Positions 5,535 to 15,044 of a stretch of DNA of 64,000 bases are shown one piece after another. This DNA is from Candidatus Aminicenantales bacterium (GTDB lineage: Bacteria > Acidobacteriota > Aminicenantia > Aminicenantales > Saccharicenantaceae): contig JBEKXF010000011.1 in NCBI GenBank assembly GCA_049512315.1, positions 30,180-94,179 on the forward strand. Reading direction: 5' to 3'. Made by a program: the position numbers and the translations under genes. The notes under the pieces were generated by a model. It ran no database searches and was not told the origin of the DNA. It saw only the letters and a list, made by a program, of their open reading frames with translations. Every line of letters starts with the position of its first letter. The first letter of the stretch is position 1.

Positions 5535-6638
5535 TCACCACTCGATGAGCATGGACGCCCAGGTCAAGCCGCCGCCGAAGCCGATGAGCATGACCAGGTC
5601 CCCCCTTCTGATCCGTCCTTCCTCGAGGGCTTCTCGCAGGGCGAGGAGGACCGAGGTCGATGAGCAATTGCCCCGGCGATCCACGTTGACGTAGAACTTC
5701 TCCAGGGGGATGCCCAGTTTTTTCGCCGGGAATTCGAAGATCCGGGAATTGGCCTGGTGGCAGAAGAAGAGTCCGATGTCTTCGAGCCGGAACGTCCTGG
5801 ACCTCCGGAGGTCCCGGTTGGCCGCCTCGAGGGCCCTCGTGATCAGCTCGGGGATGATTTTCAGGACGAACTTCTGGACGTCGTGGCCCCTGAAGTAGAA
5901 GTTCGGGGGCAGGCCCATCTGGTCCTTGCGGGTCCCCTGCCCGACGCTGAAGGTCGTGTCCGCGGCCCACGCGTCCGTTCCCGTCACGCTGCACAAGATG
6001 CCCTTCTCCGCGTCCGTCCTCTTGAGGACGGCGGCGGCCGCTCCGTCCCCCCACAAATCGGAGTTGGTGTCTTTGAAGTCCAAGAGGCGGCTGGGGACAT
6101 CGGCCCCGATGGCCAATCCGTATTCGTAGCGGGTTTCGGGGAAGAGCAGCGTTTTGCGGACGATGTCGATGGCATAAAGTCCGCCGGTGCAGGCGGCCAG
6201 GACGTCGAAAGCCTGGATCCGGAGCTTCCCCTTGGCTTCGGCGGCCGTCCATTCGCCGGACGCCGTCTTTTTTCGAATGACCTTGTCCAGGAGCAGACAG
6301 GCGGTCGAGGGAAAAAAGGCCTCGGGCGTCGAGCTGCCGATGACCACGATGCCGATGTCCTCCCAGCCGATCCCGGCTTCCCGGAGGGCTTGTTCGGCCG
6401 CGACCAGGGCCAGGTCCGAGGTGTTGACCTCGTCCGCCGCCCAGCGGCGCTCCTTGATTCCGACCAGGTCCGTGATCCTCTGGGGGGTCAATTCCTCGGG
6501 CGTCCAGAGCCTGTCCGTGCCGGGCTTGATCGCCCCGTGGGCCAGGAGGATCTTGACGATATCCTCGTTCGTCACGATCCTGCCCGGGACATCCGTCCCC
6601 GGCAGGCATTTGCCCAGACCAGCTATCTTCACCTGCAT
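5535..6638 (-). CDS. 3-oxoacyl-ACP synthase III family protein (FabH-like KAS III)
   Basis: Catalytic triad context: AACTGGLYAIDIV (Cys), FFCHQANSRI (His), GNCSSTS (Asn); thiolase fold length 367 aa. Confidence 0.8.
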   Translation of the reverse strand: MQVKIAGLGKCLPGTDVPGRIVTNEDIVKILLAHGAIKPGTDRLWTPEELTPQRITDLVGIKERRWAADEVNTSDLALVAAEQALREAGIGWEDIGIVVIGSSTPEAFFPSTACLLLDKVIRKKTASGEWTAAEAKGKLRIQAFDVLAACTGGLYAIDIVRKTLLFPETRYEYGLAIGADVPSRLLDFKDTNSDLWGDGAAAAVLKRTDAEKGILCSVTGTDAWAADTTFSVGQGTRKDQMGLPPNFYFRGHDVQKFVLKIIPELITRALEAANRDLRRSRTFRLEDIGLFFCHQANSRIFEFPAKKLGIPLEKFYVNVDRRGNCSSTSVLLALREALEEGRIRRGDLVMLIGFGGGLTWASMLIEW

Positions 6639-6783
6639 CGCGTCAACATCTCCTTCTCATCCAAGCGCGCCAACTCGAAAGACAATTCGTGGCTATTTAT
6701 TATTAGAGGATCATGGCAGGATGTCAAATTTTCCGGGAGCCGGGGTATTCCGACCAGGACCTCGCGGACCTGGAGGCCCCAGA

Positions 6784-7278
6784 CTAATCCGAATAATCCT
6801 TGAAGAGCCGGACCAGAGTCTCCTTGCCCATCGAGCCGGATGTCCGGTAGCGGATCCGGCCCTTCCTGTCGATGATGATGGTCGCCGGGATGTATTGCCC
6901 CGGCTGGTAATCCATGATGATCTGCCCGGTGGCCATGGCGACGGGATAGATCATCCCGGCCTTCTCGGCCCACTCGCGGAGCCTGTCGAGGGAGATGCGG
7001 TCGACGGAGAGGCCCAGGATCTCGAGGCCCTGGGCATTCAAGCTCTTGTAGGCTTCGATGAAATCGGGGATCTCCTCCCGGCAGGGGGGGCACCACGTAG
7101 CCCAGAAATTCAGGACCAGGACCTTTCCCTTATAGGACGCCAGGGTGAGCGTGTTTCCCTTGAGGTCCTTGACCGAAAAATCAGGGGCCGGCGCGTTATC
7201 TTCCTGCGCCTTGGCACAGGCGGCCGCCCCGGCCGCGATGAGCGCTCCCGCCGCGAGAACGATCAAGAACCTTTTCAT
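6784..7278 (-). CDS. periplasmic thiol:disulfide oxidoreductase, TlpA/ResA-like thioredoxin-fold protein
   Basis: Signal peptide MKRFLIVLAAGALIAAGAAAC then WATWCPPC redox motif; start moved from track ORF (7407) to internal ATG 7278 preceded by GAGGAG RBS. Confidence 0.8.
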   Translation of the reverse strand: MKRFLIVLAAGALIAAGAAACAKAQEDNAPAPDFSVKDLKGNTLTLASYKGKVLVLNFWATWCPPCREEIPDFIEAYKSLNAQGLEILGLSVDRISLDRLREWAEKAGMIYPVAMATGQIIMDYQPGQYIPATIIIDRKGRIRYRTSGSMGKETLVRLFKDYSD

Positions 7279-7417
7279 CTTCTTCTCCTCGGTCTCCGCG
7301 CCTTCGCGGAAGGGCCCGGGACCGGACGACCCACCGTCCGAAATATGACTAATCCGATATGAATTATAAGCTAAGGAGCGGACGGCCGCAAGGCCGCGGC
7401 CGGACAAGGGCAGTGGC

Positions 7418-8314
7418 TCAGGCCCCGCAGCCCTTGAGGAGGCGCTCCCAGCGGGCGTCGACCTCGGCCTGAAGCTCCGCGATCTGGGCTTCGTTCAAAT
7501 GACGGAATCTCCCCTGGAGCCGGAGGTAGTCGTTGATCGGCTTTTTCTCCTTGAGTTTCAAATTCAAGGTCGTCCTCAGGCCGTCCTCGATCTCGAAGAG
7601 CGGGAAATAGGCGTTCTGGACGGCCATCCGGGCCAGCTTCACGGTGTCGTCGGGCCGGCTCTTCCAGCCCGTCGGGCACGGCGCGTAAACGTGGAAGAAG
7701 CGCGTCCCCTTGATCCCCTTGGCCTTCGTCATTTTCTTGAAGAAATCTTCCGGGTGCGAAATGCTGGCGGTCGCGATGTAGGGGATACGGTGGGCCGCGA
7801 GGATCGCCACGATATCCTTTTTCGGCCGGGTCTTGAAATGCTTGACCGGGGTCGTCGTCGTCCAGGCGCCGTAGGGCGTCGCGGAGCTCCGCTGGATGCC
7901 GGTGTTCATGTAGGCTTCGTTGTCGTAGCAGACGTAGATGATATCCTCGTTCCTCTCGGCCGCCCCGGACAGGGCCTGGAGGCCGATGTCGAACGTCCCG
8001 CCGTCGCCGGCCCAGGCGACCACCGTCGTCTCCGTGTCCCCCGTCATTTCCAGCCCGGCCTTGACCCCCGTTGCCGTGGAGGCGGCGGTCTCGAAGGCGC
8101 AGTGGTAGATGGGGACGTCCATGGAGGAATAGGGATAGGGTCCGTCGATGACCGCCCAGCAGCAGGCGGGAATGCAGAGCACGGTCTTCTGGCCGAGCGC
8201 CTTGAGCATGTAGCGCATGGCGAGGGTCGCGCCGCAGCCCTGGCAGGCCAGGTGGCCGCAGGCCATCAGCTCATCCGCGGGAAGCGTCAGGGTCATCTTC
8301 TTTTCTTTTTTCAT
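7418..8314 (-). CDS. porB: pyruvate/2-oxoacid:ferredoxin oxidoreductase beta subunit (TPP-binding)
   Basis: 298 aa; TPP-binding GDGG..NE pattern (WAGDGGTFDIG ... CYDNEAYMNTG), conserved Cys cluster; last gene of G-D-A-B order; 4-nt overlap with porA. Confidence 0.85.
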   Translation of the reverse strand: MKKEKKMTLTLPADELMACGHLACQGCGATLAMRYMLKALGQKTVLCIPACCWAVIDGPYPYSSMDVPIYHCAFETAASTATGVKAGLEMTGDTETTVVAWAGDGGTFDIGLQALSGAAERNEDIIYVCYDNEAYMNTGIQRSSATPYGAWTTTTPVKHFKTRPKKDIVAILAAHRIPYIATASISHPEDFFKKMTKAKGIKGTRFFHVYAPCPTGWKSRPDDTVKLARMAVQNAYFPLFEIEDGLRTTLNLKLKEKKPINDYLRLQGRFRHLNEAQIAELQAEVDARWERLLKGCGA

Positions 8315-9465
8315 TTCTTGACTCCGATCCAGACGATCTCTTCGTCGGCTTTGTCCTTGGACAGAGCGTGGGCGGCGACTTCCTTGAACGTGTCCACGGT
8401 GATGTCTCGTCCGCCGAGCCCGGTGATGTAGCCGAAGAGCGGCGGCATCCCGGCCTCGCCGTAGAGCGCCGATTTCACTTCCTGGTAAAAGATGCCGTGG
8501 GCGCCGTAGGAGCAGTTCCGGTCGACGACGGCCGCCTTCCTGACCTTTTGGAGGACCTCCCGGACCTTGGCGAAGGGGAAGGGCCGGAAGACCTTGATGC
8601 GTAAATTCCCGGCCTTGACGCCGGACATGCGGAGGTCATCGACGGCGACGCGGGCTGTGAATCCGGCCGTCCCCGATGTGACGAAGACGAACTCGGCATC
8701 GTCGCACCGGTAGGGGTCGACGAGACCGAGGTAGCGGCCGAAGAGCTTCTCGTACTCCCGGCCCGTCTCTTCAATCAGGGCCGGGGCCTTTTCCATGTCC
8801 TTCTGGAGCTTGTAGCGGAGCTCGAAATAGTGTTCCGACCCGGTCAGCCCCCCGAAGGCGTGGGGGTCGCTCGGCGTCAGGCGGATGGCCGGCTTGAAGG
8901 GTGGAAGGTACTTGTCGACCTTCTCCTGTTCAGGGATCTCGACGACCTCGTAAGTATGGGAGAGGGCGAAGGCGTCGAGGACGACCATGGCCGGGATCAT
9001 CAACTTCTCGGAGACCTTGAAGGCCTGGATGACGGTGTCGAGGACCTCCTGGTTCGACGAGCAGTAGTACTGCATCCAGCCCGTGTCCCGCTGGGACAGG
9101 CTGTCGTTCTGGTCGGTCCAGATCGACCAGCCCGGGGCCATGGACCGGTTGACGTTGCCCATGACGATGGGGTGGCGGCCGCCCGAGGCCCAGTGAAGCA
9201 TTTCGTGCATGAGGGCCAGCCCCTGAGATGAGGTCGCCGTGAAGGTCCGGGCCCCGGCGACCGAGGCGCCGATGCACGAGGCCATGGCCGAGTGCTCGGA
9301 TTCGACCTTGATGAACTGGGCGGCGAGCGTCCCGTCGGCGCACATCTCGGAGAGGAGCTCGACGACCTGCGTCTGCGGCGTGATCGGGTAGGCGGCGATG
9401 ACCTGGGACCGGGAGAGCATGGCCCCGTATGACAGAGCGTGGTTGCCCATCATGACTTTCTTCAT
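8311..9465 (-). CDS. porA: pyruvate/2-oxoacid:ferredoxin oxidoreductase alpha subunit
   Basis: 385 aa from internal ATG (MKKVMMGNHALSYG...) whose ATG overlaps the porD stop (ATGA); typical PorA N-terminal sequence; track ORF N-extension rejected. Confidence 0.85.
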   Translation of the reverse strand: MKKVMMGNHALSYGAMLSRSQVIAAYPITPQTQVVELLSEMCADGTLAAQFIKVESEHSAMASCIGASVAGARTFTATSSQGLALMHEMLHWASGGRHPIVMGNVNRSMAPGWSIWTDQNDSLSQRDTGWMQYYCSSNQEVLDTVIQAFKVSEKLMIPAMVVLDAFALSHTYEVVEIPEQEKVDKYLPPFKPAIRLTPSDPHAFGGLTGSEHYFELRYKLQKDMEKAPALIEETGREYEKLFGRYLGLVDPYRCDDAEFVFVTSGTAGFTARVAVDDLRMSGVKAGNLRIKVFRPFPFAKVREVLQKVRKAAVVDRNCSYGAHGIFYQEVKSALYGEAGMPPLFGYITGLGGRDITVDTFKEVAAHALSKDKADEEIVWIGVKK

Positions 9466-9758
9466 TTCCGCTCCTCCACCATGACGATGCACTTGGCGGG
9501 ACATTCCTCGGCGCAGATGCCGCAGCCCTTGCAGTAGTCGTAGTCCACGACTGGCCATTCGTCGACGATGTCGATCGACGGTTCGGGGCAGAACTTCCAG
9601 CAGATGCCGCACTTGAGGCACTTAGACAGGTCGATCTCGGGCCGGATGTTCCGCCAGGCGCCCGTCAAGTTATGGGTTTGACTGCCGATGGAGATGACCA
9701 TGGTCGGCATCTCCTCGGCCGACTTGAAAACGATCTTTTTAGCTTTCTTTTCCCTCAT
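9462..9758 (-). CDS. porD: pyruvate:ferredoxin oxidoreductase delta subunit (2x[4Fe-4S] ferredoxin)
   Basis: 98 aa with two CxxCxxCxxxCP motifs (CLKCGICWKFCP; CKGCGICAEECP). Confidence 0.85.
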   Translation of the reverse strand: MREKKAKKIVFKSAEEMPTMVISIGSQTHNLTGAWRNIRPEIDLSKCLKCGICWKFCPEPSIDIVDEWPVVDYDYCKGCGICAEECPAKCIVMVEERK

Positions 9759-9771
9759 GTCTGATCCTCCC

Positions 9772-10314
9772 TCAGGCCCGCGCGTAGGCTTCCTCGGCCG
9801 CCTTGACGTTGTCCTCCGGCTTGATGGAGATGCCCTCGCGGATGGCTTGGGCCAGGGACTCGAGTTTCGTCAGGCCGAGGACCTTGATGACGGCGCCGGC
9901 GATGGCCGTGTTGACGATCGGGGCGGCCAAGCTCCCCAGCCTGTTCTTGACGGCGATTTCGGTGGCGTTGATCGTCCGGACCTTGAACTTGCCGTGGAAG
10001 GGGAAGTCCTCGGGCCGGCGGTCGCTGTTGATGATGATCGTCCCGCCCGCCTTGAGGCCGTCGGTGATGTCGATGGCCTCGACGAGGGTGGGGTCGACGA
10101 CGACGACGTGGTCGGGGGAATAGATCCGGCTCTTGTCGTAGATCGGCTTGTCGTCGATGCGGATGAAGGCGACGACGGGCGAGCCCCGCCGTTCGACGCC
10201 GAATTCGGGGTAGGCCTGGACCCAGTTGCCTTCCTTGGCGATGGCGTCGGCCAGGATCTTGGAGGCGACGACGGTGCCCTGGCCGCCGCGGCCGTGAAAT
10301 CGGATTTCGACCAT
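9772..10314 (-). CDS. porG: pyruvate:ferredoxin oxidoreductase gamma subunit
   Basis: Starts MVEIRFHGRGGQGTVVASKIL (canonical PorG N-terminus) at internal ATG 10314; track N-extension rejected. Confidence 0.85.
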   Translation of the reverse strand: MVEIRFHGRGGQGTVVASKILADAIAKEGNWVQAYPEFGVERRGSPVVAFIRIDDKPIYDKSRIYSPDHVVVVDPTLVEAIDITDGLKAGGTIIINSDRRPEDFPFHGKFKVRTINATEIAVKNRLGSLAAPIVNTAIAGAVIKVLGLTKLESLAQAIREGISIKPEDNVKAAEEAYARA

Positions 10315-10396
10315 GTCCCTCTCCTTTCCGATGTTGGATGAGGCGCTATTATATGCCCGAAGGCCCCCGGAAGGGAAGTGGTCCGGGCGCATTCCA

Positions 10397-10426
10397 TTGA
10401 CTTCCCTCTTTGGCTGAACATATAAT
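10397..10426 (+). promoter_or_regulatory. sigma70-like promoter for the peroxidase gene: -35 TTGACT (10397-10402), 18-nt spacer, -10 TATAAT (10421-10426)
   Basis: Hexamers read directly; located in 145-bp divergent intergenic region between porG and the CCP gene. Confidence 0.4.
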
Positions 10427-10537
10427 CGCGGCTGGATGAGAGATTGGACTCCCGGTTCGTGCGAAAGGGGCGTGAACCGGACAAAAAAACCCTGAGCGCT
10501 ACGCTTTTTCTATCGTTTTAACAAGAAAGGAGGGATC

Positions 10538-11614
10538 ATGTGCCGAAGAATCTGGCTGATGGTCTTGGCCGCCTGCGTGCTTCTGGCCGGCTGGGGCGTC
10601 GTCCGTGCCTCGAACGATGAGAAAGCCCCGCCGCTGACGCAGGTCAACGTACACCTTCTCGGCCCCCAGCGGCTCGGCCCCCTGCCGCCGGTCATTCACC
10701 CGCCGGGGAATCCGCCCTCAAGCCTCAAGATCCATCTGGGCAAGATGCTCTATTTCGATACCCGGCTCTCGGCAGACAACTCGGTCAGCTGTGCCACTTG
10801 CCACACCCCGGCCCTGGGCTGGTCCGACGAGGGCCCGACAAGCAAAGGGATCCACGGCCAGCTCGGCGGCCGACGGGCGCCTCCCGTCTCCAACGCCGCT
10901 TACAGCCCGCTCCAGTTCTGGGATGGGCGGTCGGCGTCCCTCGAAGACCAGGCCAAGGGGCCGATCCAGAACCCGGTCGAGATGGGCAACACGCATCAGG
11001 CCATGATCCAGACCGTGGACAAAATCTCGGGCTACGTCGAGGAGTTCAAGGCCGTGTTCGGGGAGGGCCCGATCACCGTCGATCAGGTCGCCGACGCCAT
11101 CGCCGCCTTCGAGCGCACGGTCGTCACGACCGACTCGCGTTTCGACCGCTATGCCCGCGGCGACCATCAGGCCCTGAGTTGCCTGGAGAAGGAGGGGCTG
11201 GAGATCTTCAACGGCAAGGGGCATTGTACCTCCTGCCACTGGGGCCCGTATTTCAGCGACGGACGCTTCCACAACCTCGGCGTGCCGGCCAAGGACCCCA
11301 AGAACCCCGATGTCGGGCGATATGCGGTGACGAAAGACCCGCGCGACATGGGCGCCTTCAAGACCCCCACCGTCCGCGACGCGGCCCTGCGCGCGCCCTA
11401 CCTCCACGACGGTTCGGAAAAAACGCTCCAATCCCTGATCGATTTTTACGACCGCGGCGGCGGCCGGGACCGCAACCTCGACCCGCTGATGGTCCCCCTG
11501 GGCCTGAGCCAACACGAGAAAAAAGCGCTCGTCGCCTTCATCAAGTCCCTGAACAGCCTCAACCCCGAGGTTGCAGACGTCAAGCCGATCCCGCCGGACG
11601 AGCTGATCAAGTGA
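10538..11614 (+). CDS. di-heme cytochrome c peroxidase (CCP/MauG family), periplasmic
   Basis: Signal peptide; two CxxCH heme motifs (CATCH, CTSCH); 358 aa typical for bacterial di-heme CCP/MauG; AAAGGAGGG RBS. Confidence 0.85.
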   Translation: MCRRIWLMVLAACVLLAGWGVVRASNDEKAPPLTQVNVHLLGPQRLGPLPPVIHPPGNPPSSLKIHLGKMLYFDTRLSADNSVSCATCHTPALGWSDEGPTSKGIHGQLGGRRAPPVSNAAYSPLQFWDGRSASLEDQAKGPIQNPVEMGNTHQAMIQTVDKISGYVEEFKAVFGEGPITVDQVADAIAAFERTVVTTDSRFDRYARGDHQALSCLEKEGLEIFNGKGHCTSCHWGPYFSDGRFHNLGVPAKDPKNPDVGRYAVTKDPRDMGAFKTPTVRDAALRAPYLHDGSEKTLQSLIDFYDRGGGRDRNLDPLMVPLGLSQHEKKALVAFIKSLNSLNPEVADVKPIPPDELIK

Positions 11615-11624
11615 GGAGGGAGCC

Positions 11625-12884
11625 ATGAGAAGAACCCTGACCGCAACACTGTCCGCCGTTTTCGCGCTTCTTCTCCTCAATCAGACCGCCCTGGCCATCC
11701 CGGCCTTCGCCCGGAAATACGGCTTCAACTGCAACATGTGCCACGTCGCCTTCCCCAAGCTCAACGACTGGGGCCAGCGCTTCCGGGACAACGGCTACCA
11801 GGTCCCCGGCCAGGCGGGCCTGGAAAAGACCGTCTTCGAAAACGGAATCCCCTTCGCCCTGCGGACCAACGCCGGATACTCTGTCTATAATGACGGAGCG
11901 GGCACGGCGTCTGGCTTCCATCTCTACAGCCTGGACCTGCTGGCCGCGGGCGTCCTCCACAAGAACATTTCGTTCCTCTTCGTTTACACGCCGCGGATCG
12001 ACGAGCCGGCCGCAAATTGGACGGGGCCCGGTAACGGCGACAACCCGGCCCAGCTGGCGGCCATCGAGTCGGCCAACGTGGTCTTCAGCAATATCATTCG
12101 GGACAAGCTCAACCTGCGCCTCGGCCGCTTCGAGCCGGGCTTTCAGCTCCTCAGTTCCAAGCGCTTGTACTACATCCTCCAGCCGTTCGAGATCTACGGC
12201 TTCGCCGGGACGCGGTCGAGCTTTGATTTTTCCGCCAACCACATCGGGATCGAGGCCACGGGGCGTTTCAATCCCGGCCTCAAATACGCCCTGGGCTACA
12301 TCAACGGGACCGGCGCCAACCCCGACAACAACAGGTTCAACGATCTCTACTTCGCCCTGTCCAAGACATTCGGCAAGGGGGAGGGGCAGTCGGCGGGGCA
12401 GCGCATTGGAGTCTTCGGCTATCTCGGCTGGCAGCCGACGGAGTTCGACGGCACGATCACCTCGCCCTTGGGGGATATCAATGGACACAACAACCGGAAC
12501 TTCACCCGGATCGGCGGCGACATTAGCCTGAACTGGGAAACGCTCAACCTCCAAGCCATGGCCTTCCGCGGCGTAGACGACATGGCCTTCAATATCTTCG
12601 ATCCGACGGCGGATTACACGTTCTGGGGCGGGGTCGTGGAGCTCGACTGGGCTGGCCTGGCCAATAACCGCCTGGTGGGGTCGTTGATGTACAACTGGGT
12701 CCGGCCGCCGAGCTATGATTTCGTCAACCGGATAAACGCCTATTCCGCCCTCGTGCGCTACTATCTCGGCAGCTGGTCGGCGGTGAACGTCGCCCTGCAC
12801 GCGGAGTATACCTATCGTACGGTCGGGGACCTCTACCCGGTCAAGGAGAACCTCTTCACCTTGCTCCTGGATTTTGATTTCTAG
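11625..12884 (+). CDS. putative outer-membrane beta-barrel protein with N-terminal single c-type heme-binding motif (CNMCH), hypothetical
   Basis: Signal peptide (ALLLLNQTALA), CxxCH 13 residues after predicted cleavage site, alternating-hydrophobic/aromatic beta-strand-like sequence throughout, C-terminal ...LLLDFDF ending in Phe (OMP signature); 10 nt after CCP stop with GAGGAGGG RBS. Confidence 0.6.
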   Translation: MRRTLTATLSAVFALLLLNQTALAIPAFARKYGFNCNMCHVAFPKLNDWGQRFRDNGYQVPGQAGLEKTVFENGIPFALRTNAGYSVYNDGAGTASGFHLYSLDLLAAGVLHKNISFLFVYTPRIDEPAANWTGPGNGDNPAQLAAIESANVVFSNIIRDKLNLRLGRFEPGFQLLSSKRLYYILQPFEIYGFAGTRSSFDFSANHIGIEATGRFNPGLKYALGYINGTGANPDNNRFNDLYFALSKTFGKGEGQSAGQRIGVFGYLGWQPTEFDGTITSPLGDINGHNNRNFTRIGGDISLNWETLNLQAMAFRGVDDMAFNIFDPTADYTFWGGVVELDWAGLANNRLVGSLMYNWVRPPSYDFVNRINAYSALVRYYLGSWSAVNVALHAEYTYRTVGDLYPVKENLFTLLLDFDF

Positions 12885-13753
12885 GCCGGCCCGGCGGCGG
12901 ACGGGCCCTTGACTTGCTGGGCCCGGTAGAGGTTCTTGAGCATCAGGGCGTCGGCCTCGAGGTTGGGGCTCTCGCAGATGACCAGGCCCTCGACCGCGAG
13001 GTCCCGGAGGGCCTGGATCCATTCGTCGTACCGGAAGTCCGCCTCGTCGAGGTTGAGGTGCTTAACCTCACCCTTGTCGTTGTAGTGGATTCCGGCGATG
13101 TGGATGTGGGCGTTCTTGAGCGCCCCCGCCCCGAGCTTTTTCGCGACCTTGCTGAGGACGCGGTGGAAATCCGGGTAGGAGTTGACCCGGCCCTCGCGCG
13201 CATGGATGTGGGAGAAGTCCAGGCAGGGCCGGAGGCCGTCGACCTCGCGGCAGATCTGGAGGACCTCGTCGAGCGTCCCGAACTGGGACCGTTTGCCCAT
13301 GGTCTCGACGCGGACGCTCGTGGGAAGCCGCTCGGTCCGGACGATGGACATCACGGCCGCGAGCCCGCTCTTGACGGCGGCGTAGGCCCTTTCGGGAGAG
13401 TCCTTGCCGTAAAACCCCGCGTGGAAGACGACGCTCTCCGCCCCGCACGCCGCCCCGACCCGGGCGGAGCTCAGGAGCCGCTCCTGGCTGTGGAGCCGGA
13501 TCCCCCGGTCCTCGGAGTTGAAGTTGATATAGTAGGGGGCGTGGACGCTCAGGCGGAGGCCCAGGGCCGCCGCCTTCTGGCGGATCTTGCCGGCCGTGTC
13601 GAGGCCCATTTTGACGCCCTTGACGAACTCGATCTCGAGGCCGTCGAGCCCGAGCTCCTTGATGTGGTCGAGGGCCGCGAGGGTCGAAGTGTCGGAAGCT
13701 GAAAGCGGCACGCCGGCCGTCCCGAAGAGAAGGCGCCTAGGAGCACCGGGCAT
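12881..13753 (-). CDS. xylose-isomerase-like TIM-barrel protein, AP endonuclease family 2 (endonuclease IV-like)
   Basis: Motif series resembling Nfo metal ligands ([12 protein letters not shown]; VVFHAGF; RVETMGK; CLDFSHIHA; [11 protein letters not shown]; LVICESPN); start moved to internal ATG 13753 ([14 protein letters not shown]), overlapping thiC 3' end by 17 nt. Confidence 0.65.
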
Positions 13754-15044
13754 CGGCCTCTCCGTCGGGATTGAGAAATTCGCTGACGATCCGCATGGCG
13801 CAGAATTCCCCGCACATGGAGCAGGCCTGGGTCTTCGATCTTCTCCTCTTCCGGACGGCCTCGAACTTGAGGGGGTCGATGGCCAGCTTTTTCTGGCCTT
13901 CCCAGTCCAGGCGCTTCCGGGCCCGGGACAGCTCAAGGTCCCGCTCGAGGGCGCCCGGGACGCGCTTGACGATGTCGGCGGCGTGGGCCGCGATCTTCGA
14001 GGCGATGAGCCCCTCGCGGACGTCGTCGAGCGTCGGCAGGCCGAGGTGCTCGGCAGGCGTCACGTAGCAGAGGAAATCCGCCCCCGCCGCGGCCGCCAGC
14101 GCCCCGCCGATGGCCGAGACGATGTGGTCGTAGCCGGGGGCGATGTCGGTGACGAGGGGTCCGAGCACGTAGAAGGGCGCGTCCTGGCAGAGGCGCTTCT
14201 GGAGCCGGACGTTCATCTCGACCTGGTCGAGAGGAATGTGGCCCGGGCCTTCGACCATGACCTGGACGCCCGCCTCCCGCGCGGTCCGGACGAGCTCGCC
14301 GAGGGTCAGCAGCTCCTCGATCTGGGGACGGTCGGTCGCGTCCAGGATCGATCCCGGCCGGAGCCCGTCGCCCAGGCTGAGGGTGACATCATGCCGCCGG
14401 GCAATCTCGAGAAGGCGGTCAAAGCGGGCGTAAAAGGGATTCTCCTTCCCGTTGTGGAGCATCCAGGCGAGGTGGAAGGCCCCTCCCCGGGAGACGATGT
14501 CCGCGACGCGGCCCTGCTTTTTCAGGCGGTCGACGGCCTTGAGGGTCAAGCCGCTGTGGACGGTCATGAAATCGACACCCTCCGCGGCCTGGGATTCGAT
14601 GGCCTCGAACAGGTCGTCCTCCGTGATGTCGACGATCGTGCCCCGGCGGTCGATGGCCCGGATGGCCGCCTGGTAAATGGGCACGGTCCCTAGAGGGATG
14701 GGTGTCCGCCGGAGGATCGCCCGGCGGATTTTCCTGATGTCTCCTCCCGTGCTCAGGTCCATCAGGGCGTCGGCCCCGTAATCCAGGCTGACCTTCAGTT
14801 TCTTAAGCTCGTCGTCCAGGCGGGGAAAATCACGCGACGTGCCGATGTTGACGTTGACCTTGGTCCGGAGGTTCCGGCCGATCGCCGCGGGCCGGGCGGG
14901 AGAGTGGCCGGGATTATAGGGGATGACGGCCAGGCCTTCCGAGACGAGGCCGGCCAGCGCCTCGGCGGAGATCCCCTCCGCGGCGGCGGCCTTCTTCAGG
15001 ACCCTGGTGAGGACACCTTTCCTGGCCTGCTCGACCTGCGTCAT
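13737..15044 (-). CDS. thiC: phosphomethylpyrimidine synthase ThiC
   Basis: 435 aa from internal ATG ([10 protein letters not shown]...); C-terminal [10 protein letters not shown] radical-SAM-type Cys cluster and strongly conserved ThiC core; track N-extension rejected. Confidence 0.9.

Follow-up and report, generated by a model that had tools for sequence, protein, structure and literature searches.

In the rus operon of Acidithiobacillus, cyc2 lies beside cyc1, whose product is a periplasmic cytochrome c4 that serves as the electron acceptor of Cyc2. Described members of the Cyc2 family of outer-membrane proteins, which are putative Fe(II) oxidases, include Cyc2PV-1 of Mariprofundus, Cyc2 of A. 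ferrooxidans and Cyt572 of Leptospirillum; the protein studied here has in common with them a signal peptide, a signature motif, a single CXXCH, a PxL motif and a length of >365 residues (McAllister 2020; Keffer 2021). Among the di-haem enzymes of the CCP_MauG family, canonical peroxidases are told apart from MauG by the ligands of the six-coordinate haem, which are Met-His in the former and Tyr-His in the latter, and the Tyr-His enzyme BthA forms bis-Fe(IV), yet reduces H2O2 catalytically (Rizzolo et al. 2019). Here, we describe a locus in which a Cyc2-like protein and a Tyr-His di-haem enzyme are encoded side by side. It lies in a stretch of 64,000 nucleotides (nt) from contig JBEKXF010000011.1 of a Candidatus Aminicenantales bacterium, referred to below as the window, and consists of a 358-residue di-haem enzyme and, after 10 nt, a 419-residue barrel protein (Table 1). 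A preliminary description, made from the DNA alone, had reported this pair as a di-haem peroxidase with CATCH and CTSCH motifs followed by a second haem protein, and both open reading frames (ORFs), their coordinates and their motifs proved to be as described. The two genes form an obligate, mobile, self-contained unit in which one clade of Cyc2 is tied to a peroxidase-like enzyme.

The pairing was examined from both sides. On the Cyc2 side, a one-genome-per-species scan queried with a 7-sequence alignment (an 18-sequence alignment was set aside as too diverse) yielded 80 loci, to which three loci from exact-sequence look-ups were added. Wherever the Cyc2-like protein was at least 52% identical to that of the window and the locus could be tested, a di-haem gene lay immediately upstream on the same strand (26/26; a 27th locus of this group is cut by a contig end and was excluded), and the enzymes paired in this way are 64–87% identical to the window enzyme. 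None of 56 distant Cyc2 loci (27–35% identical) had a homologue of cytochrome c peroxidase (CCP) in the flanks examined. On the enzyme side, a metagenome scan gave another 80 loci, of which those with an enzyme of ≥57% identity and ≥200 nt of downstream sequence were counted as testable. A Cyc2-like gene lay directly downstream in 39/39 of these, ten further loci being too short downstream for the comparison, and 0/31 out-group enzymes (46–54% identical) were paired with such a gene. Conservation of the gene pair, which the preliminary description had named as a check, is therefore complete among the testable loci. The gap between the CCP stop and the Cyc2 start is mostly 10–11 nt (range −17 to +27 in 51 related loci), the flanking genes vary from locus to locus, and the hosts include Aminicenantes, other Acidobacteriota, Ignavibacteriota, Bacteroidota, Zixibacteria, Krumholzibacteriia, Phycisphaerae and one metagenome-assembled genome (MAG) labelled Proteobacteria. 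That two unrelated haem proteins should be neighbours merely by chance is effectively excluded by such counts, because order, strand and the ~10-nt spacing are kept in 65/65 testable loci from at least seven phylum-level lineages with varying flanks, and the pairing is absent from both out-groups. Across paired loci the enzyme is better conserved than the barrel, and both proteins carry invariant clade-specific residues, which is consistent with co-adaptation. In two MAG loci (L001, 4912-5905; L025, 3928-4909), the di-haem gene is split across two reading frames, and in L025 the Cyc2-like gene is also garbled past residue ~318; either sequencing or assembly introduced the frameshifts, or the module is decaying at these two loci.

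The 419-residue protein has no match in Pfam or NCBIfam. A motif AxPxFAR[Q/K][T/Y] upstream of CXXCH has been defined as unique to Cyc2, with a PxL four residues downstream of the haem site, and OprP is the template named for Cyc2PV-1 (Keffer et al. 2021). The window protein carries the signature, a single CXXCH and the PxL, satisfies the length of at least 365 residues with a predicted signal peptide, and is modelled with an OprP-like 16-strand fold. By these published sequence criteria it is a Cyc2 fused cytochrome-porin, a family membership that the preliminary description had missed, direct homology being shown to the Nitrospira homologues only; these are counted as Cyc2 in the literature, and the full-length alignment with the one from Nitrospira defluvii has 33% identity (E = 1e-41). 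Nitrospira and Acidobacteriota proteins are also its nearest distant relatives.

AlphaFold2, run with a diverse 100-sequence alignment that replaced an earlier attempt from 27 close homologues only (predicted local distance difference test, pLDDT, of 56), gave a model of 16 strands and an N-terminal helical domain with a mean pLDDT of 89.6 and a predicted template modelling score (pTM) of 0.85. The top PDB match of the model in Foldseek was the 16-strand porin OprP (2o4v_A, E = 3.2e-11), with other general porins next, most of which we take to be 16-stranded as well. Known Cyc2 proteins likewise combine a 16-strand barrel, OprP as the best structural match and a C-terminal aromatic residue. 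Two distant relatives, P0282 and P0283, have a precomputed Pfam Porin_O_P (PF07396) match, which fits the OprP-like fold. At the N-terminus, the model has a helix at residues 2–17 and falls below pLDDT 50 at residues 18–25; predicted cleavage between TALA and IPAF would put the CxxCH 11 residues into the mature protein. The preliminary description had postulated a signal peptide with a CNMCH close behind it and an outer-membrane barrel ending in Phe, and had let its case depend on a barrel fold and on a CxxCH conserved among orthologues. These expectations were borne out by the model and by four alignments, including those of 27 close and 100 diverse homologues, in which the haem site is invariant.

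In a large protein collection, 629 homologues of the barrel protein were found, the best 120 of which are all ~419 residues long, 67–88% identical, hypothetical and, where named, from Aminicenantes/Acidobacteriota, and a profile search of 1.8 billion cluster representatives brought up 2,900 related clusters. With the 'FARQT' representative P0249 as seed, 27 proteins were retrieved, all of them unnamed or hypothetical. Among 104 full-length representatives drawn from the best 150, a single N-terminal CxxCH is present in 102 and CxxCH+3+PxL in 93; the usual context is AIPAFARKY..C..CH...P.LN.FG..FR.NGY, and most terminate in an aromatic residue. Residues P26, F28, A29 and R30 of the signature are kept at 89–99% in 88 distant family members, and the N-terminal cytochrome domain is the best-conserved portion of the protein. 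Compared with known Cyc2 proteins, the window clade is unusually conserved and has invariant residues of its own: 63 positions, many of them clade-specific, are invariant among sequences 49–84% identical to the window protein, which is unusual for a porin. Specific to the peroxidase-linked clade are Asn35, Met38, Gln51, Arg52, a YTPRxDxP motif and a GxGQxxGQR turn (with Gln255), and the clade has its own invariant aromatics (Tyr121, and Phe71 at ≥95%). The turn in question is the long one between strands 8 and 9, in which G252, G254 and G258 are invariant and G250, Q255, Q259 and R260 are kept at ≥95%. If the topology is porin-like, this turn would be periplasmic, and the di-haem enzyme might dock there.

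Distant Cyc2 genes have neighbours of another kind. An adjacent same-strand ORF with CxxCH is present at 31/52 distant loci, and the ten of these ORFs that were scanned are all class-I cytochromes c. In Acidobacteriota and Gemmatimonadota, a c4-like di-haem protein of ~300 residues is encoded downstream of cyc2 (each of six such ORFs scanned with Pfam has two Cytochrom_C/Cytochrome_CBB3 domains), and in Nitrospira the neighbour is mono-haem; one of the Nitrospira cytochromes (L038) carries a PepSY domain. These arrangements mirror cyc2-cyc1, so that the slot beside Cyc2 appears normally to hold a periplasmic electron acceptor; here, it holds a Tyr-His di-haem enzyme. Unlike other Cyc2 genes, those of the window clade are always preceded by a di-haem CCP_MauG gene and do not stand beside a class-I cytochrome c. 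The likeness to the A. ferrooxidans rus operon lies in an outer-membrane Cyc2 gene that adjoins, on the same strand, a gene for a periplasmic di-haem c-type protein. Yet the partner here has a peroxidase fold with an open catalytic haem and is not an electron-carrier cytochrome, its gene comes first, and no rusticyanin or oxidase genes are linked. The preliminary description had offered three roles for the barrel, namely, electron donor to the peroxidase, its substrate, or a redox conduit; the shortlist was the right one, and the analogy with the Cyc2-adjacent cytochromes c favours donor or conduit.

The di-haem enzyme matches Pfam CCP_MauG at 1.9e-60 (204 bits against a cut-off of 25.6), and this score, its two CxxCH motifs, the inter-haem Trp and the distal Gln/Glu make it a member of the CCP_MauG superfamily. 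Its best PDB matches are bacterial CCPs (8.6e-61 to 1e-54), the canonical enzymes Geobacter CcpA (3hq9), Shewanella CcpA (3o5c), Nitrosomonas (1iqc) and Pseudomonas (1eb7) matching at E values of 1e-54 to 1e-61; MbnH-type 6e1c (7e-39), MauG (1e-26) and BthA (2e-12) are weaker. It also stays under the NCBIfam cut-offs for MauG (TIGR03791, 236 versus 444 bits) and MbnH (TIGR04039, 214 versus 363 bits). The canonical CCPs share with it the two haem motifs, the inter-haem Trp and the distal Gln/Glu. In contrast to them, however, it has Tyr304 where they have the Met ligand of the six-coordinate haem, it has no conserved distal His, and arginines (Arg113 and Arg285) occupy the positions of an Asn and a Thr that we take to be ligands of the Ca2+ site. 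Tyr304 falls on Tyr294 of MauG in BLASTP and on the Met of AVAVMGS in the Geobacter CCP, and it is invariant in 68/68 module enzymes; the MauG sequence used in the alignment is 100% identical to 3l4m_A. The relation to MauG suggested in the preliminary description thus extends to the Tyr ligand. Two other candidate ligands were rejected: Met318 varies (M/L/I), and His106, which presumably lies near the distal-His position of activatable CCPs, is unconserved. Because CCPs are the closest matches, Tyr304 stands at the Met position and the scores are below the MauG and MbnH cut-offs, the enzyme is, judging from its sequence, a peroxidase-like CCP_MauG member with MauG-type Tyr-His ligation, neither a canonical CCP nor MauG or MbnH proper.

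Both haem motifs are invariant in the 68 module enzymes, and the first aligns with the first CxxCH of MauG. Equally invariant are Trp128, Gln138 and Glu148, which align to MauG Trp93, Gln103 and Glu113, and Pro142 corresponds to MauG Pro107. Clade-specific residues are Trp95, Arg113, Arg285 and Trp235, the last lying directly after the proximal His of haem 2 in 66/68 module enzymes versus 0/31 out-group enzymes, and replaced by Glu in MauG. Arg113 and Arg285 are invariant in the Cyc2-linked clade; Asn/Ser/Gln and Thr, respectively, are found in the out-group, and Asn66 and Thr275 of MauG, presumably Ca2+-site ligands, align to them. The inter-haem Ca2+ site may therefore have been replaced by arginines in this clade. 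In the out-group enzymes of L132, L135, L137, L138, L141, L148, L149 and L157-L159, Leu, Phe or Lys stands in place of Tyr304 (DFLDxGG, DFFDxGG, DFKNAGG), so that the second haem is not ligated in the same way throughout this branch of the superfamily. One out-group sub-clade is preceded by a gene for a conserved secreted protein of ~175 residues without CxxCH (MKK...GILxPxMxVExGTY...; L133, 862-1389; L134, 932-1471; L140, 2364-2888), which may be a different dedicated partner. Other out-group di-haem genes are followed by large ORFs of ~770 residues with signal-peptide-like N-termini (L136, 4065-6371; L152, 1272-3587), which hints that other branches of the enzyme family may likewise pair with large secreted or envelope proteins.

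The position of the enzyme in the genomic slot of Cyc1-like cytochromes could be taken to mean that it is a mere periplasmic shuttle, as once proposed for Geobacter MacA, by which Fe(II)-derived electrons travel from Cyc2 to an oxidase or reductase of the inner membrane in energy-conserving iron oxidation. Such is also the default reading of FeGenie cyc2 matches in these taxa. We regard it as very improbable here: Gln138, Glu148, Trp128 and an open haem 1 are invariant peroxidase features that would be unexpected for a plain shuttle, a Tyr-His haem has a low potential and is poorly suited to accept Fe(II)/Cyc2 electrons at rest, and neither oxidase genes nor further cytochrome genes accompany the pair in the loci for which neighbours were compiled.

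A second possibility takes its cue from MauG (3l4m), with which the window enzyme has in common the Tyr at the Tyr294 position and the equivalents of Trp93, Gln103, Pro107 and Glu113, and which is likewise encoded beside a specific partner, the protein that is its substrate; in the precursor of methylamine dehydrogenase (preMADH), MauG oxidises particular tryptophans. MbnH is co-encoded with its substrate MbnP. By analogy, the enzyme of the module might use H2O2 to modify the Cyc2-like protein, through a cross-link, an oxidised or hydroxylated aromatic residue or an altered haem, and so create its redox site. The strict one-to-one genetic coupling, the invariant Tyr304 and the residues that match the MauG catalytic set (Trp128, Gln138, Pro142 and Glu148) would suit such a maturase, as would the clade's own invariant aromatics in a barrel unusually well conserved for a porin and the unusual haem reported for the Cyc2 homologue Cyt572. 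Although it is the main rival of the reading favoured below, we consider it unlikely. The enzyme is far closer to catalytic CCPs than to MbnH or MauG; the BthA precedent shows that an enzyme with Tyr-His ligation can still reduce H2O2 catalytically; the cytochrome domain has no obvious target comparable to the tryptophans of MADH, such as an invariant Trp pair; and elsewhere in the Cyc2 family the adjacent gene encodes an electron carrier, not a maturase. Identity to MauG is 29% only, Gly replaces MauG Trp199 and the Trp next to the haem motif is another one (235), and no mau genes were found with NCBIfam in the window, whose other ORFs are partly annotated, or in the loci examined. MbnH (6e1c family) is distant too, and the adjacent gene here encodes an outer-membrane cytochrome-porin and no MbnP-like protein. 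BthA of Burkholderia (6nx0) resembles the window enzyme in being a Tyr-His CCP_MauG member that is neither a canonical CCP nor MauG, but its sequence is distant and it has no inter-haem Trp, a residue invariant in the module enzymes.

The invariable pairing with a MauG-like peroxidase suggests that electrons from outside the cell go to H2O2 and not to a respiratory chain. We therefore favour, with a probability of roughly 50%, a reading in which the module would be an Fe(II):H2O2 oxidoreductase, with extracellular Fe(II) as donor, H2O2 as acceptor, and the Cyc2 haem and the di-haem enzyme as the path between them. At the cell surface, dissolved Fe(II) would give up electrons one at a time to the Cyc2 haem, as has been shown for other Cyc2 proteins, and the haem would hand them to the enzyme docked at the periplasmic face of the barrel, instead of to a c4-type or mono-haem cytochrome c and a terminal oxidase. 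H2O2 would bind at haem 1, predicted to be five-coordinate and constitutively open; with no conserved distal His, reductive activation should be unnecessary. Tyr304 and Trp128 would stabilize a high-valent, bis-Fe(IV)-like state, which two electrons arriving via haem 2 and the clade-specific Trp235 would reset, the net reaction being 2 Fe(II) + H2O2 + 2 H+ -> 2 Fe(III) + 2 H2O. Peroxide and envelope Fe(II) would thus be removed without Fenton chemistry. As the module has no inner-membrane link, its role would be protective, in anaerobes of Fe(II)-rich, intermittently oxidised habitats, and not energy-conserving iron oxidation. This fits a self-contained module, the lack of further cytochrome genes nearby, the anaerobic-type oxidoreductase encoded next to it and the habitats of the hosts. 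Among known enzymes, E. coli YhjA is likewise a periplasmic haem peroxidase with H2O2 as terminal acceptor under low oxygen, but its electrons come from the quinone pool, whereas the donor proposed here is an outer-membrane cytochrome-porin. EfeB of the EfeUOB system is a peroxidase that couples H2O2 to Fe(II) oxidation; it feeds an iron importer, however, and no transporter is linked to the module.

Several points weigh against such an oxidoreductase. MauG and MbnH, the best-known cases of Tyr-His ligation, modify a protein encoded beside them; this ligation also lowers the haem potential, which makes a conventional reduce-first peroxidase cycle unlikely. The function of 'Cluster 3'-like Cyc2 proteins is called explicitly uncertain in the literature, and the electron donor could be other than Fe(II). 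Footprinting of the 200 nt upstream of 12 loci gave no claimable Fur/PerR/OxyR-like operator that would respond to peroxide or iron; the sole conserved upstream element is an AGGAGG-like block before the start.

The same electron flow might also serve nutrition or detoxification, if periplasmic H2O2 drove the Cyc2 haem to a strongly oxidising state in which it oxidised extracellular Mn(II), humic or phenolic matter, sulfide or Fe(II) minerals, as a trans-outer-membrane peroxidase. A bis-Fe(IV)-capable Tyr-His enzyme would supply ~1 V of oxidising power, a part in Mn(II) oxidation has been suggested for Cyc2 in Manganitrophaceae, and the hosts are organotrophic taxa from sediments and soils. 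However, the substrate is purely conjectural, the Cyc2 pore is thought to pass only small dissolved ions, and no conserved transport or catabolic genes lie beside the pair in the loci listed, so that an outward-directed oxidant seems quite improbable. Taken more broadly, the view that the enzyme is either a MauG-like maturase or a permanently docked oxidising subunit, which as a trans-outer-membrane peroxidase would project bis-Fe(IV)-level power onto non-Fe(II) substrates, is somewhat unlikely.

A haem-bearing outer-membrane barrel is not new in itself, because this one is a member of the known Cyc2 family; the part that appears to be new is the pairing of a Cyc2 clade with a di-haem enzyme. 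In the literature searched, there was no description of a strict, reciprocal and broad coupling between a Cyc2 clade and a Tyr-His enzyme, of the contrast with cytochrome c partners, or of the clade-specific substitutions in the enzyme, although absence there is no proof of absence. The consequences concern, above all, the use of cyc2 as a marker. Through FeGenie, it is widely used to indicate microbial iron oxidation. It has already been reported by FeGenie-based studies in Aminicenantes, Krumholzibacteria, Ignavibacteriales and Zixibacteria, and matches in these groups are routinely taken as iron-oxidising energy potential, even though the authors who described the Cyc2 family call the function of its divergent clusters uncertain. 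In those taxa, it is a MauG-like di-haem peroxidase, rather than a cytochrome c/oxidase chain, to which this Cyc2 clade is genetically locked, and this points to a different role, either protective peroxide-linked Fe(II) oxidation or protein modification. If confirmed, this would mean revising ecological conclusions based on metagenomes. One Cyc2 clade would then have its long-sought physiological electron partner, and the few kinds of partner known for Tyr-His di-haem enzymes would be joined by a third, an outer-membrane cytochrome-porin. Should the enzyme prove to be a maturase or part of a trans-outer-membrane peroxidase, MauG-type chemistry would for the first time be linked with an outer-membrane beta-barrel, and cyc2 marker matches in sediment heterotrophs would take on a different meaning. 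Either way, a small self-contained module bears on the open question of what Cyc2 does outside the classic iron oxidisers, and the E. coli expression system already published for Cyc2PV-1 makes it directly testable.

Table 1. Features of the haem operon and of its surroundings (window positions; locus positions for the distant Cyc2 homologues)
Feature	Position	Strand	Basis or remark
Sigma-70-like promoter match, TTGACT-18-TATAAT	10397..10426	+	divergent intergenic region; 11/12 consensus positions; weak
Ribosome-binding site AGGAGG of di-haem gene	10528..10533	+	4 nt 5' of ATG
Periplasmic di-haem CCP_MauG-family enzyme, 358 residues	10538..11614	+	Pfam CCP_MauG (PF03150)
Predicted Sec signal peptide, residues 1-24 (...VVRA, then SN)	10538..10609	+	n/h/c layout read from translation
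Haem 1 motif C85-A-T-C88-H89 (CATCH)	10790..10804	+	peroxide-binding, five-coordinate haem by homology
Arg113	10874-10876	+	invariant in Cyc2-linked clade
Haem 2 motif C230-T-S-C233-H234 (CTSCH), then module-specific Trp235	11225..11242	+	sequence
Arg285	11390-11392	+	invariant in Cyc2-linked clade
Tyr304, predicted axial ligand of haem 2 (Tyr-His, as in MauG and BthA)	11447..11449	+	alignment
Ribosome-binding site GGAGGGAG of Cyc2-like gene	11615..11622	+	within 10-nt gap; tight operon
Cyc2-family fused cytochrome-porin, 419 residues	11625..12884	+	motif, length, single haem site, 16-strand barrel, OprP-like fold
Predicted Sec signal peptide, residues 1-24 (...QTALA, then IP)	11625..11696	+	n/h/c layout read from translation
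Cyc2 signature A24-I-P-A-F-A-R-K-Y32 (AxPxFAR[Q/K][T/Y])	11694..11720	+	three residues before C36
Small N-terminal cytochrome domain, residues 25-73	11697..11843	+	model helices H26-32, H36-39, H48-55, H70-73
Single haem c attachment site C36-N-M-C39-H40	11730..11744	+	sole CxxCH of protein
PxL motif P44-K-L46	11754..11762	+	sequence; Pro is 4th residue past CxxCH
Predicted 16-strand beta-barrel, residues 77-418	11853..12878	+	model; C-terminal Phe signature (...LLLDFDF)
Strand 8-9 long turn G250-K-G-E-G-Q-S-A-G-Q-R260	12372..12404	+	position from model; highly conserved
Thiamine pyrophosphate (TPP)-binding beta	7418-8314	-	2-oxoacid:ferredoxin oxidoreductase cluster
POR_N/PFOR_II alpha	8311-9621	-	2-oxoacid:ferredoxin oxidoreductase cluster
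4Fe-4S delta	9462-9758	-	2-oxoacid:ferredoxin oxidoreductase cluster
POR gamma	9772-10392	-	2-oxoacid:ferredoxin oxidoreductase cluster
AP_endonuc_2 ORF	12881-13936	-	convergent
Distant Cyc2 homologues, then c4-like cytochrome (Acidobacteriota, Gemmatimonadota, relatives); L047, L051, L054, L057-L059, L062, L063, L065, L066, L068-L071, L074, L078, L080-L083	~6200-7400 in most

Within the window, the two genes of the module are the only ORFs of at least 100 residues that bear a CxxCH. The intergenic gap of the pair holds a GGAGG ribosome-binding site. The near-consensus promoter to which the preliminary description had drawn attention does exist, but it lacks statistical support: one promoter-like site was observed in a 3-kb stretch against a mean of 0.7 in shuffles, and the DNA upstream of the operon could not be aligned with the upstream regions of 11 related loci. 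The promoter was therefore given no weight and was discarded as evidence. Upstream of one other module locus (L090, 2801-3003), there is a very AT-rich segment with repeated TTATAAT/ATAATTT-like palindromic units resembling Fur/PerR-type boxes, which is absent from the other loci.

Downstream of the pair and convergent with it are an AP_endonuc_2 TIM-barrel gene and thiC, and a VanZ gene is also among the annotated neighbours. The stop codon of the Cyc2-like gene (12882-12884) overlaps that of the AP_endonuc_2 ORF, which leaves no space for an intrinsic terminator between the two. On the other side, and divergent from the haem operon, lies a four-gene 2-oxoacid:ferredoxin oxidoreductase cluster (7418-10392, minus strand); enzymes of this kind are oxygen-sensitive and typical of anaerobes, which is consistent with an anaerobic host.

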